From the IMG/VR virus record IMGVR_UViG_2693429700_000007: 15,853 nt of DNA; one strand, given 5' to 3'. A program made the translations under genes and the position numbers. How positions within the stretch are numbered: the first letter of the stretch is position 1; every line of letters begins with the position of its first letter. Origin of the DNA: a virus (Duplodnaviria; Heunggongvirae; Uroviricota; Caudoviricetes). Under the pieces are notes generated by a model. The model saw nothing but the letters and a program-made list of their open reading frames with translations. It did not search any database and had not been told where the DNA came from. This document shows, piece after piece, positions 1 through 15,853 of this stretch.

Positions 1-292
1 CCCGGCAGACCAGCCACCACGGCAAATCACTCTGCACCTGCAGCCGCCGGTCGGCCTCACTCAGCCAGGGCAGACCACCGGGGTGGCTGTGGACCAGCGC
101 CACAATCTCACCGTGCAGTGTTGCCTGCAGCCAGTCCTCCGGCGACATCCGGAAATAATCTTCCGGCTCACCGGAGATATTCACGCAGGGGAAATATCTT
201 TCCCCCTCCGACGTTCTCACCACGAAGCCGCACGACTCCGCTGGCGCACATCGCCGGGCGTGCGCCAGAATCGCTGATTCTGTCTCTGTCAT
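1..292 (-). CDS. K: Tail tip assembly protein K, N-terminal part (partial; runs off the left edge of the window)
   Basis: My own translation of the minus strand from the ATG at 292-290 (5 nt after the L stop) gives MTETESAILAHARRCAPAESCGFVVRTSEGERYFPCVNISGEPEDYFRMSPEDWLQATLHGEIVALVHSHPGGLPWLSEADRRLQ..., which contains a JAMM/MPN-like H-S-H-x7-S-x2-D motif as expected for lambda gpK. Position directly after L matches lambda gene order. No obvious Shine-Dalgarno, so the exact start is uncertain. Confidence 0.6.
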   Translation of the reverse strand, partial: MTETESAILAHARRCAPAESCGFVVRTSEGERYFPCVNISGEPEDYFRMSPEDWLQATLHGEIVALVHSHPGGLPWLSEADRRLQVQSDLPWWLVCR

Positions 293-297
293 GGGAT

Positions 298-996
298 TTA
301 CTGCGAAAGTTTGTTAATGGAAAGGAAGCCGCCAAAGTTGCCGACGTTATTGCGAAACTTACAGCCACTCAGGCATTTGCTACATTTATCCTTCGTGATA
401 TCGGACGTCGGCTGGTCATATTCATCCGCGACAGCCGGACCATTATAACCGCACTCATCACCGCGATAGGTCCAGGTGCAGGTGTTGGCCAGCATGATGC
501 GCCCCGGAAAAACGGCACCATCCGTTTCCGTCGGTGTGGACAACACAAAGGAGGCACTGACCGCGCTCAGTTCGCTGCACTGCTCAATGCGCCAGCGGCT
601 GATCACCTCCTGCTCCGGATCGGCGTCACTGTTTCCGTTGACGAAGTTCACCGCATCCAGAAAACGGGCGTAAACCTTACGCCTGACCACCGTTCCGCCG
701 ACCAGACTTTGCAGGTCTTCCGCCATCCCGGTGACCATGCCGTGCAGGTTAGAGACTTTCAGCGTTGGTCTTGCACTGGCTCCTTTGCCGTTCATCTCAA
801 AGCCGCTTCCCTGAATAGGGTACGCCTGATACTGTCGCCCCTGCCAGGTGACTGACTCACCTTTTTCGTTCTGCTCATTACAGAAAAAATAACGCTCGCC
901 ACCGACTTCGGTCAGATCGACTTCCCAGAGCACGACCAGTGCGGATTGCTCCGCTTTTGTACACTCATTCAGTGTTTCCTGTTGTATATCCTGCAT
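298..996 (-). CDS. L: Minor tail protein L (lambda gpL-like)
   Basis: 232-aa ORF with ATG start at 996-994 overlapping the M stop (ATGA). The translation (MQDIQQETLNECTKAEQSALVVLWEVDLTEVGGERYFFCNEQNEKGE...CSKCLSGCKFRNNVGNFGGFLSINKLSQ) matches lambda gpL as I recall it along its whole length, including the C-terminal Cys cluster. Confidence 0.9.
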   Translation of the reverse strand: MQDIQQETLNECTKAEQSALVVLWEVDLTEVGGERYFFCNEQNEKGESVTWQGRQYQAYPIQGSGFEMNGKGASARPTLKVSNLHGMVTGMAEDLQSLVGGTVVRRKVYARFLDAVNFVNGNSDADPEQEVISRWRIEQCSELSAVSASFVLSTPTETDGAVFPGRIMLANTCTWTYRGDECGYNGPAVADEYDQPTSDITKDKCSKCLSGCKFRNNVGNFGGFLSINKLSQ

Positions 997-13426: not shown

Positions 13427-13777
13427 TCAGTTGATGCGTTCGCGCGCTGTTTTTGCTTTATGGCAGGACCAGCACAGACTCTGCAGGTTACTGTCTGCAT
13501 CCGTGCCACCATGAGCTTTCGGAATGATGTGGTCCACAGTTCTGGCTTCAACGGCTCTCCCATTGCGCAGGCAGTTCTGACACAGATGATTATCACGCTT
13601 CAGTATGCGCGCACGTATGGTATCCCATTTCGAACCATATCCACGCTGGTGGCGGCTCAGTCCGCGTTGATGCTGTACCCATCCTTCGCCACGATGTGTA
13701 TCACAGTAACCAGAACTGTCTGTGGTTGTATCTGCACATCCACGCTTACGACAGGCGCGTGGGATTCGTGATGGCAT
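13427..13777 (-). CDS. HNH endonuclease (terminase-associated, HK97 gp74-like)
   Basis: 116-aa ORF, ATG at 13777-13775. Cys-rich with a clear HNH motif: …VDHIIPKAHGGTDADSNLQSLCWSCHKAK…. Its position directly upstream of cos and terS matches the HNH proteins that assist HK97-type terminases. Confidence 0.85.
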   Translation of the reverse strand: MPSRIPRACRKRGCADTTTDSSGYCDTHRGEGWVQHQRGLSRHQRGYGSKWDTIRARILKRDNHLCQNCLRNGRAVEARTVDHIIPKAHGGTDADSNLQSLCWSCHKAKTARERIN

Positions 13778-13797: not shown

Positions 13798-14094
13798 TTA
13801 AAGCGCTTGTCCCTCAGGGAGGATACAGATCACCCCCAACCCCGCAGCCACGGCGTACTGATTATGTTCATCGACAAGATTTATTGTGCTATCAAGTAAC
13901 TCACGACAGTGGCTTACATTCGTTTCAATGCTCAACACCAGTGAATAAGCACTATTCAACTCCTGACCTGATAAGAACGGAGAATCAGCAGAAACAATTT
14001 CCGATTTTATTTTTCGCAGAGCGCAAAGATTTTCTTCAATGCATTTTCTCAGGACAACGCAACGCCCAATCGCCTCATAGTTTTGCTCAGACAT
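13798..14094 (-). CDS. Hypothetical protein (98 aa), moron-like gene between Rz/Rz1 and HNH
   Basis: The track ORF opens with TTG at 14112. The likely start is ATG at 14094-14092 with AGGTGGG upstream. Translation MSEQNYEAIGRCVVLRKCIEENLCALRKIKSEIVSADSPFLSGQELNSAYSLVLSIETNV... has no signal peptide or TMD. The region looks lower in G+C than its flanks by eye. Confidence 0.5.
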   Translation of the reverse strand: MSEQNYEAIGRCVVLRKCIEENLCALRKIKSEIVSADSPFLSGQELNSAYSLVLSIETNVSHCRELLDSTINLVDEHNQYAVAAGLGVICILPEGQAL

Positions 14095-14119
14095 TTCACC
14101 CACCTGTTTCAAAAGTACT

Positions 14120-14584
14120 CTACTTAATGCACTGATCGCGGATATATTCCTGCAATCCCCTGATCATTTTTTCGCTGGTTGCAGCTCGCTCTCTGAGGAT
14201 GAAATAATCCCGTTGAGCGGAGTCAGTAAGTCCGGGGCTGGCTGCATCATCCACGCCGGAGGAGGCGGTGGCTTCACGCACGGCTGGACAGACTGCTCTG
14301 ATGCGCAACCGACGACGACCAGCGGCAATATCATCACGCAGAGCATCATTTTCAGCTTTCGCATCAGCTAATTCCTTTGAATATTTTGCATCGAGTGCAG
14401 CAACGTCACGCTGGCGCACCTGCATATCAGTAATGATCGCCTCTGCCAGTTTCAGCTCTCTGGCATTGTCATCGCGTTGTGTTTTGTAGGTAATGGCGTT
14501 ATCGCGGTAATGCTCTGTTGCCAGCCACAGAGCACTACAGACCATCAGCAGGACAATAATCACGCCATACAGAATTCGGTTCAT
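14120..14584 (-). CDS. Rz: i-spanin Rz
   Basis: Start ATG at 14584-14582 (MNRILYGVIIVLLMVCSALWLATEHYRDNAITYKTQRDDNARELKLAEAIITDMQ...), 1 nt after the upstream ORF stop (TGAAATG), with GGTGG Shine-Dalgarno. Closely resembles lambda Rz from memory, with an N-terminal TMD and coiled-coil periplasmic domain. The track ORF extends 17 codons further upstream, which I judge spurious. Confidence 0.85.
   Translation of the reverse strand: MNRILYGVIIVLLMVCSALWLATEHYRDNAITYKTQRDDNARELKLAEAIITDMQVRQRDVAALDAKYSKELADAKAENDALRDDIAAGRRRLRIRAVCPAVREATASSGVDDAASPGLTDSAQRDYFILRERAATSEKMIRGLQEYIRDQCIK
14164..14364 (-). CDS. Rz1: o-spanin Rz1 (lipoprotein, embedded in the +1 frame of Rz)
   Basis: MRKLKMMLCVMILPLVVVGCASEQSVQPCVKPPPPPAWMMQPAPDLLTPLNGIISS... 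has a lipobox (LVVVGC) and a Pro-rich stretch, and closely resembles lambda Rz1 from memory. Entirely nested within Rz. Confidence 0.85.
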   Translation of the reverse strand: MRKLKMMLCVMILPLVVVGCASEQSVQPCVKPPPPPAWMMQPAPDLLTPLNGIISSSESELQPAKK

Positions 14585-14585
14585 T

Positions 14586-14723
14586 TCACCACCAGCGTAT
14601 CTGACCGATGAAATAACCGGAGCCCATAACCACAAACACCAGCCAGATAAGGATGAACTTCCAGATGGATAATTTTTCAGCCATCACTCGAATCTCCAGA
14701 ATCAGTTTGCTAAAATCAAACAC
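14586..14723 (-). CDS. Small single-TMD membrane protein (45 aa from GTG; 32 aa if from the internal ATG at 14684) between the endolysin and Rz
   Basis: GTG at 14723-14721 with a strong AAAGGAGAAAAC Shine-Dalgarno. Translation MFDFSKLILEIRVMAEKLSIWKFILIWLVFVVMGSGYFIGQIRWW* has one hydrophobic helix, and its stop is 1 nt from the Rz ATG. The track's 64-aa version would run through the upstream hairpin and is less likely. Confidence 0.5.
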   Translation of the reverse strand: MFDFSKLILEIRVMAEKLSIWKFILIWLVFVVMGSGYFIGQIRWW

Positions 14724-14756
14724 GTTTTCTCCTTTAGCTTTCCCATGGGCAGAAAA

Positions 14757-14800
14757 CAAAACCCCGCTTGCTGCCAACAAACGGGGTTTTTGCTTTTATT
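14757..14800. terminator. Hairpin with flanking T-tracts (possible bidirectional intrinsic terminator) inside the lysis cassette
   Basis: Plus strand reads AAAACCCCG-(15-nt loop with internal TTG/CAA pairing)-CGGGGTTTT followed by TGCTTTTATT. On the minus strand the same stem is followed by GUUUUCUG, then the Shine-Dalgarno of the small ORF. The T-tract is better on the plus strand. Confidence 0.45.
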
Positions 14801-14880
14801 CACTTACCTTTTGCCAGTTTGCAGAATATCGTGCTATCCGCTTGTGTGAGCAAACGGCATTTTTCAGCAAAATATTCTGC

Positions 14881-15414
14881 TTATCTGTCGATCCCCCAGC
14901 ACACCAGCGCACTCTCCTGGTCACGACGAATAACCTGACCGTAACAGTTATTTGAACGAATGCGGCAATCACGGCCACCGTCCTTAATCCACCAGCGAAT
15001 CGCCTCGCATGCGCCTTTGCGATCACCGGCATTCAGCCGCTTATAAAACGTCGACGGGAAACACTTACCGGGGCCAATGTTATAGGGACAAAATGACGCA
15101 ATACCTGCTTTTTGTGGTTCGGTCAGTGGTACTTTTATATTGCGATCCACCCATGCCAGCGCCTTATCACGTTCAATAGCGTTAACCTGGTCGCATTTTT
15201 CCTTCGACAGCTTCATTCCCGGTATGACGGGCTTACCATCCACCATTGTGGCACCACGACAGATGGTCCATATGCCAGAACCATCACGGTATGCCGTTGT
15301 GTGGTTACCTTCTTTTTCATCCAGAAACTGGTCAAGTATTTGAGGAGCAGACGCGCCTGCAGCAATCAGCGCCAGAACGGCAGCTGACAGGCCGTATTTG
15401 ATTTTTGCGTTCAT
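14881..15414 (-). CDS. R: Endolysin, T4-lysozyme-like (GH24), probable SAR (signal-anchor-release) type
   Basis: 177-aa ORF, ATG at 15414-15412. Catalytic spacing E-x8-D-x5-T is present (EGNHTTAYRDGSGIWT). The N-terminus YGLSAAVLALIAAGASAPQIL is a weakly hydrophobic Gly/Ala-rich segment typical of SAR domains. It resembles phage 21 R and E. coli prophage Rrr-type lysozymes from memory. No clear Shine-Dalgarno. Confidence 0.85.
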   Translation of the reverse strand: MNAKIKYGLSAAVLALIAAGASAPQILDQFLDEKEGNHTTAYRDGSGIWTICRGATMVDGKPVIPGMKLSKEKCDQVNAIERDKALAWVDRNIKVPLTEPQKAGIASFCPYNIGPGKCFPSTFYKRLNAGDRKGACEAIRWWIKDGGRDCRIRSNNCYGQVIRRDQESALVCWGIDR

Positions 15415-15477
15415 GGATATTTATCAGAATTTACCGGTTTCTGCCCATGGACAGGTTTATCTGTTCCGGTCAGTGGC

Positions 15478-15716
15478 TTAAGGTTGCGATTCCGGAGGAG
15501 TCTTCAGAGAACAAGTAATTCTTCCCGGTAGCTTTCCTTTGTAGGTTACCCACACATTCTGCGCCTCAAAAATTATGGGGCGTTTTTCTGGCGACGGCTC
15601 ATCCCATTCACATAACCTGGCAGCAACATCCAGAAATACCTGTCTGATTCTCCTTCTGGCTGCTGCCTCATAAAACTCCAGCGCGGCACCTTCAACACGG
15701 TCCAGCGAGATGTCCA
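15478..15716 (-). pseudogene. 5'-truncated ORF upstream of the endolysin, interrupted by the IS insertion (possible DUF1327/YdfR-like gene remnant)
   Basis: The 79-codon frame ends in TAA at 15478 and its apparent ATG overlaps the first base of the IS inverted repeat (15717), so the native N-terminus lies beyond the IS. Hydrophilic, so not a holin. The family suggestion comes only from recalled gene order in E. coli Qin-like prophages. Confidence 0.4.
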
Positions 15717-15853
15717 TGAACCGCCCCGGAAATCCTGGAGACTAAACTCCCTGAGAAAGAGGTAAACAGGATGACTAAAAATACTCGTTTTTCCCCCGAA
15801 GTCCGTCAGCGGGCGATTCGTATGGTTCTGGAAAGTCAGGATGAATATGACTC
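15717..15853 (+). mobile_element. Left end of an IS3-family insertion sequence (IS629/IS1203-like), partial
   Basis: Sequence from 15717 (TGAACCGCCCCGGAAATCCTGGAGACTAAACTCCCTGAGAAAGAGGTAAACAGG-ATG) matches the left inverted repeat and leader of IS629 as I recall it. It is followed by the start of orfA; the element continues beyond the window. Confidence 0.75.
15771..15853 (+). CDS. IS3-family transposase OrfA, N-terminal fragment (partial, runs off the right edge of the window)
   Basis: ATG at 15771 preceded by GAGG; translation MTKNTRFSPEVRQRAIRMVLESQDEYD... is the characteristic N-terminus (HTH region) of IS629/IS1203 OrfA. Confidence 0.75.
   Translation, partial: MTKNTRFSPEVRQRAIRMVLESQDEYD

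Follow-up and report, generated by a model that had tools for sequence, protein, structure and literature searches.

What has become of the lysis functions of a lambdoid Escherichia coli prophage when the gene upstream of its endolysin runs directly into an insertion sequence (IS) and no holin gene can be seen nearby? The question is raised by a 15,853 bp stretch of prophage DNA (the window) in which the endolysin and spanin genes lie near the right-hand end, bordered by a 79-codon ORF and 137 bp of IS. A sequence-only reading proposed that the element had truncated this ORF and could have separated the lysis genes from their holin and late promoter, leaving the prophage lysis-defective, or alternatively that outward-reading IS sequences may now drive or polarise expression of the endolysin gene.

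The window and its boundaries

Look-up of the 79 amino acid product (deposited as CTT75436.1, “putative prophage protein [Escherichia coli]”) revealed that the window is the entire contig CYAS01000086.1 of a draft E. coli assembly, GCA_001283645.1. Both contig ends look like repeat boundaries of the type at which short-read assemblies break. The right-hand end lies 137 bp inside a multicopy IS, and the left-hand end (window positions 1–300) lies in a lambdoid tail gene K (encoding a C40 family peptidase) that adjoins the gene for minor tail protein L, a segment found at a median of two and a maximum of 13 places per E. coli genome. Tail gene K is cut by the contig end; the other genes called in the window for packaging, heads and tails are of the expected lengths.

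Between these boundaries lies a prophage late module of the HNH–TerS–TerL–portal–S78 protease–capsid type, with no stx gene visible in the window. The HNH endonuclease gene (13427–13777, minus strand) is immediately upstream of terS and terL, an arrangement typical of HK97-like cos-packaging phages. A search of a phage collection returned no identical phage; the best match covered 60% of the query at 93.5% identity. The terL region is interrupted in two close relatives of the prophage (L017:11031–14645 and L018:12230–14645): terL is called at 397 amino acids only in the former and no terL product is called in the latter, and the region is followed directly by genes for an integrase, AlpA-type regulators and a Bro-N protein. 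This suggests that the terL region of these related prophages houses an integrative element.

The lysis cassette

Endolysin, Rz and embedded Rz1, the components of a lambdoid lysis cassette, are all present and intact. The endolysin gene R (14881–15414, minus strand) encodes a 177 amino acid phage lysozyme (PF00959, 87 bits; phrog_7, endolysin), identical copies of which are found on 222 contigs. R begins 63 nt downstream of the stop codon of the truncated gene (ydfR, see below) and, having its own start at this distance, is not translationally coupled to it. The 154 amino acid i-spanin Rz is encoded at 14120–14584 on the minus strand (phrog_13, Rz-like spanin, 231 bits; PF03245) and the 66 amino acid o-spanin Rz1 is encoded within Rz in a different frame, at 14164–14364 (minus strand; PF06085, 64.8 bits; phrog_3198).

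Two further minus-strand features separate R from Rz. A terminator-like hairpin with a U-run occupies positions 14758–14790, beyond the R stop codon and ahead of the next ORF, with a folding energy of −23.9 kcal/mol (z-score −4.4). The ORF itself, of 45 codons (14586–14723), belongs to a PHROG of unknown function (phrog_6632), has no Pfam match and includes a hydrophobic stretch that, judged by eye, would form a single membrane-spanning segment. It is called likewise in relatives L016–L018.

The insertion element

The rightmost 137 bp of the window (15717–15853, plus strand) are 100% identical to the left end of 1310 bp elements annotated as “IS3-like element IS1203 family transposase” and comprise a 25 nt terminal inverted repeat, a leader and the start of orfA, at which point the contig end cuts the element. 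As ISfinder treats IS1203 as an isoform of IS629, the IS3-family, IS629-like identity proposed earlier is borne out. Only the left end of the element, about 10% of the whole, lies within the contig.

The terminal inverted repeat TGAACCGCCCCGGAAATCCTGGAGA (15717–15741) matches the left end of full copies at every position, begins 5'-TG as is the case in the IS3 family and in IS629/IS1203, and matches the complement of the right end, TGAACCGCCCCGGGTTTCCTGGAGA, at 22 of 25 positions. Reading from 15717, the plus strand continues TGAACCGCCCCGGAAATCCTGGAGACTAAACTCCCTGAGAAAGAGGTAAACAGG and then ATG ACT AAA AAT ACT CGT… up to the window end, with the orfA start codon at 15771 (plus strand), about 55 nt from the left end, and 27 codons of orfA present. 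The peptide encoded by these codons scores 19.7 bits (E 0.001) against the helix-turn-helix profile HTH_Tnp_1 (PF01527), too short to reach the cutoff of 24.1 bits, and the nucleotide sequence of the orfA start is 100% identical to annotated IS1203 orfA starts. The terminus TGAACCGCCCCGG, the leader and the start of orfA are all shared with IS1203/IS629 of E. coli and Shigella. Full-length comparator copies are 1310 bp in length, have the ends TGAACCGCCCCGG…CCGGGGCGGTTCA and carry orfA and orfB annotated with a programmed frameshift; in three of these (L004–L006), in which the frameshift is −1 and the transposase is of the DDE (rve) type, the left ends are identical over the 137 bp. The element is abundant: the IS end seen in the window was matched in 3613 of 5426 complete E. 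coli genomes, at a median of three and a maximum of 50 places per genome.

The position of the terminus was defined by aligning six independent junctions, namely that in the window and those of five further copies (in espY2, in a prophage intergenic region, close to iss, upstream of a holin gene in O157:H7 and within a holin gene in strain AHB12). The flanking sequences show no relationship, and from T15717 onwards all six become identical, beginning with TGAACCGCCCCGG, exactly where the left end had been placed. In this orientation the transposase gene reads away from the lysis genes and is antisense to late transcription.

ydfR as the disrupted gene

The 79-codon ORF immediately upstream of R (15478–15717, minus strand) was not recognised for what it is in the sequence-only reading. 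Its product matches DUF1327 (PF07041; 71.4 bits against a cutoff of 25) at profile positions 38–92 of 93 and phrog_406 (E 3.6e-42) at positions 38–113 of 114, and is 96% identical to the C-terminal part of its closest full-length relative, a 116 amino acid YdfR protein (P0001). The ORF therefore corresponds to the C-terminal two-thirds of a ydfR gene, and a full-length version (about 103–116 amino acids) with its native start was not found in the window. When the window was compared with six loci that encode P0001 and have an intact ydfR, nucleotide identities of 96–99.7% were seen and homology ended in all six cases at exactly window position 15716, equivalent to nucleotide 113 of ydfR. The remnant proper (15478–15716, minus strand) represents native nucleotides 113–351; the missing 112 nt amount to 37 codons plus one nucleotide, placing the insertion after the first base of codon 38 (Leu). 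The claim that the gene has lost its 5' end is thus upheld.

The apparent start codon of the 79-codon ORF is an artefact of the junction and not a native start, a point that had also gone unrecognised. The native sequence reads …TTT GAC CTG GAC ATC… and the window …GGCGGTTCA TG GAC ATC…: the complement of the terminal IS base, T15717, replaces the C of the native CTG and so creates an ATG. A G-rich stretch of IS origin, GGGGCGG, precedes this ATG. With this as a weak candidate ribosome-binding site, a truncated YdfR lacking residues 1–37 might be translated, were the region to be transcribed.

YdfR is also encoded by the Qin prophage of E. coli K-12, where the gene belongs to the same family (DUF1327, PF07041) and likewise sits between holin and lysozyme genes; the K-12 protein is 103 amino acids in length, compared to 116 for the intact allele in the close relatives (P0001). 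The first 72 residues of K-12 YdfR mediate its binding to the catalytic N-terminal half of RNase E, and the protein may also bind RNA (PMC13232886). By comparison, the copy in the window has lost residues 1–37, or about half of the RNase E interaction region. This non-structural accessory gene is the only one disrupted in the window, and is presumably inactivated.

These coincident boundaries also bear on whether there is an IS at this position at all. The contig ends in a repeat, where misjoins do occur, and the junction could in principle be an assembly chimera. The switch from prophage to IS falls, however, on a canonical IS terminus (TG…), at the very base where six independent copies begin, and coincides with the point at which the match to six intact ydfR loci stops. 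Such agreement with the end of the element is not what a random misjoin would produce, and we regard the probability of a chimera as very low.

The missing holin and the far side of the insertion

Pfam and PHROGs searches revealed no holin within the window, in line with what had been reported. Of four small ORFs lacking other identification, none has a Pfam match, and the two scanned against PHROGs matched families of unknown function only. The 45 amino acid ORF between R and Rz was considered as the missing holin and rejected: it matches no holin family, and intact relatives have it alongside a genuine class II holin.

The organisation of those relatives, taken here as the six contigs encoding P0001, is informative (with the 79 amino acid remnant as the query, related loci of no more than 88% identity were recovered). 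All six share the order class II holin (71 amino acids, PF04971), a 4 bp gap, ydfR (116 amino acids), a 63 bp gap and lysozyme (177 amino acids). Upstream, a gene for a Q-type antiterminator is called in five; the 45 amino acid ORF followed by Rz is called in three (L016–L018), and an HNH endonuclease and TerS are found further downstream in four, followed by terminase, portal, protease and capsid in loci that reach far enough. Since the holin gene lies 4 bp upstream of ydfR in all six, it is expected some 1.4 kb to the right, beyond the IS, and because the contig ends within a multicopy element it does not appear in the window. The absence of the holin, accurate as a description of the window, does not therefore stand as a biological feature: it reflects a repeat-induced break 137 bp into the IS in what is a whole draft contig, rather than a demonstrated loss. 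Judging by the relatives, what follows the window end on the right would be the remaining 1.17 kb or so of IS and, after roughly another 120 nt, the holin gene.

The explanation that we consider probable is that a 1310 bp IS1203/IS629 copy transposed into codon 38 of ydfR, a small accessory gene that this lambdoid E. coli prophage has in its late operon between the class II holin and endolysin genes, the holin lying beyond the IS, ydfR inactivated and late transcription crossing the element. Short-read assembly would have been unable to bridge the multicopy IS, so that the contig stops 137 bp inside it, and the rest of the IS, the second copy of CCA, the first 112–115 nt of ydfR and the holin gene most probably lie elsewhere in the assembly, on a different contig. 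CCA (15714–15716 on the plus strand; TGG in the orientation of the gene) is the predicted target-site duplication, by analogy with full-length comparator copies, seven out of seven of which are flanked by 3 bp direct duplications (AAG, CTG, GTC, AAG, AGC, GCC and GTA). On the plus strand the far junction is predicted to consist of the IS right end, …CCCGGGGCGGTTCA, followed by CCAGGTCAAAAATTTC… leading into the 5' end of ydfR and the holin gene.

Two fully assembled loci illustrate what such an arrangement would look like. In L021 the order is holin, ydfR', IS, 'ydfR, lysozyme, with the IS at codon 28 of ydfR and both halves of the gene retained; in L022, where the IS sits towards the 3' end of ydfR, holin and ydfR' are followed by the IS and lysozyme, without a call for a remnant gene. 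The two loci represent simple insertions with 3 bp duplications, and in each the IS has the same orientation as in the window.

Searches for the far side of the junction in the present case identified no counterpart. The exact 44 nt junction is absent from the GTDB species-representative genomes, and megablast with positions 15300–15853 gave no contiguous match across the junction in the 5426 complete E. coli genomes, the high-coverage places found (in O157:H7 and AHB12, for example) being joined pieces with the IS at another position. The exact insertion site was thus matched in neither collection. The partner contig was likewise not found when the predicted fusion peptide, encoded by ydfR codons 1–38 joined to the IS right end, was searched against a collection of 5.8 billion proteins; other junctions only were recovered (P0149, P0165, P0168 and P0240).

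With the right side of the IS outside the contig and the partner junction not found in these searches, the element could instead mark a rearrangement, an adjacent deletion or IS–IS recombination that removed or relocated the 5' end of ydfR, the holin gene and the Q/late-promoter region, in which case the holin would truly be gone. Small structural polymorphisms in O157 genomes have reportedly been attributed to IS elements (Ooka et al. 2009, cited in PMC4587872). The seven fully assembled comparators are nevertheless all 1310 bp simple insertions with 3 bp duplications, four of them in or beside this same S–ydfR segment (S being the holin gene), and the other prophage genes in the window are of full length, with 98–99.7% identity to those of intact relatives. 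Given the uniformity of the comparators in particular, we consider a rearrangement decidedly unlikely.

Consequences for late transcription and lysis

If the IS is a simple insertion in ydfR, does it nevertheless uncouple R, Rz and Rz1, together with the packaging and head genes downstream, from the late promoter and the holin? A polar insertion of this kind would leave the prophage lysis-defective or non-productive. Some 1.3 kb of foreign DNA would lie between the expected holin gene and R, and we found no outward promoter that could compensate. In addition, the fused ydfR' reading frame would stop 78 codons into the IS, leaving about 1.07 kb of late-strand RNA untranslated as a substrate for Rho. 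This untranslated RNA could allow Rho-dependent polarity if antitermination were incomplete, and is the sole sequence-based argument for polarity.

Several observations point in the opposite direction. Lambdoid late transcription is Q-antiterminated and resists both intrinsic and Rho-dependent terminators. The cassette already contains a strong native hairpin terminator between R and Rz, and expression of Rz and the morphogenesis genes must therefore already require terminator read-through. In a full IS copy the antisense strand showed no convincing intrinsic terminator, and R, as noted above, has its own start. YdfR is not known to have a role in lysis, and loss of ydfR consequently gives no reason to expect a lysis defect.

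A precedent for read-through comes from Stx2a phages. Yin et al. (2015) induced cultures with ciprofloxacin, filtered the supernatants and, from the DNase-protected particles they contained, closed 22 Stx2a phage genomes; in 13 of the 22 IS629 splits an ORF downstream of stx2 (PMC4587872). Particles of phages carrying IS629 at this location are thus released after induction (PMC4587872), a precedent that we count irrespective of IS629 orientation. Given the gene order Q–stx–nanS-p–S, a location downstream of stx2 would be upstream of the holin gene. Copies of the IS3-family element IS1203/IS629 are, moreover, common in the region between Q and S (PMC10462455).

Taking the two sets of observations together, a polar effect seems unlikely. 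That the prophage is lysis-defective, as had been suggested, is speculative and unsupported: R, Rz and Rz1 are intact, a native terminator hairpin is already present in the operon and IS629-bearing Stx2a phages are released. On the simple-insertion model, Q-antiterminated late transcription would still cross the IS, and lysis would be reduced little or not at all.

The alternative suggestion, that the ydfR remnant and R are now transcribed from a promoter in outward-reading sequences at the left end of the IS, fared no better. Nothing in the sequence speaks for it beyond the junction ATG with its preceding GGGGCGG. No sigma-70-like sites were found in positions 14000–15853 on either strand or in the full IS copy, leaving neither the IRL end nor the relevant strand of the full copy with a promoter-like site. 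In IS3-family elements such as IS911, IS2 and IS3 it is the right end, not the left, that carries an outward-facing −35 sequence, and here the right end faces away from R. It is very improbable, then, that the IS drives R.

Other insertions in and near the holin–ydfR segment

Independent 1310 bp IS629/IS1203 insertions were seen elsewhere at L021:5086–6395, L022:5290–6599, L001:3964–5273 and L003:4987–6296. As in the window, ydfR itself is the target in some other strains (L021, L022, P0168 and P0240), whilst in others the element lies within the holin gene (L001) or, in O157:H7, about 265 bp upstream of it (L003). Five of these six insertions (L001, L003, L021, L022 and P0168) share the orientation seen in the window, with the transposase antisense to the lysis genes, and that in P0240 has the opposite orientation; the count takes strains as found, uncorrected for clonal copies or for the high copy numbers of IS and target. 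The resemblance extends to EHEC, where the same element splits small phage ORFs in the late operon, in the Q–S–R region of Stx2a and other lambdoid prophages (PMC4587872, PMC10462455). The case described here differs from the EHEC Stx2a-phage insertions in its site, codon 38 of ydfR, and in its setting, a prophage with an HNH–TerS–TerL–portal–S78 protease–capsid module and no visible stx.

Might the holin–ydfR–endolysin segment then be a recurrent, orientation-biased landing site for IS629/IS1203, with insertions favoured in lysogens for dampening or uncoupling the expression of holin and endolysin, or because the host benefits from losing an RNase E-binding YdfR? At least six independent junctions were seen besides that in the window, and in five the transposase runs antisense to late transcription. 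We regard the idea as a long shot: a hotspot or an orientation bias is possible, but what we report is several independent hits on the S–ydfR segment, mostly in one orientation, and we do not claim a hotspot. If the idea were true, the dampened expression of holin and endolysin that resulted from such insertions would be a form of prophage domestication.

Implications

The insertion described here is an ordinary one, of a well-documented kind. The deposited 79 amino acid “putative prophage protein” is a truncated ydfR product with an artefactual start, a correction of little import beyond annotation, and the apparent lack of a holin is the result of a contig breaking at a repeat. For the inducibility of the prophage, the relevant points are that R, Rz, Rz1 and the packaging, head and tail genes (tail gene K excepted) have their expected lengths and that only ydfR is disrupted. 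The extent to which an IS exerts polarity in a Q-antiterminated operon is an empirical matter, and one for which precedents of read-through already exist.
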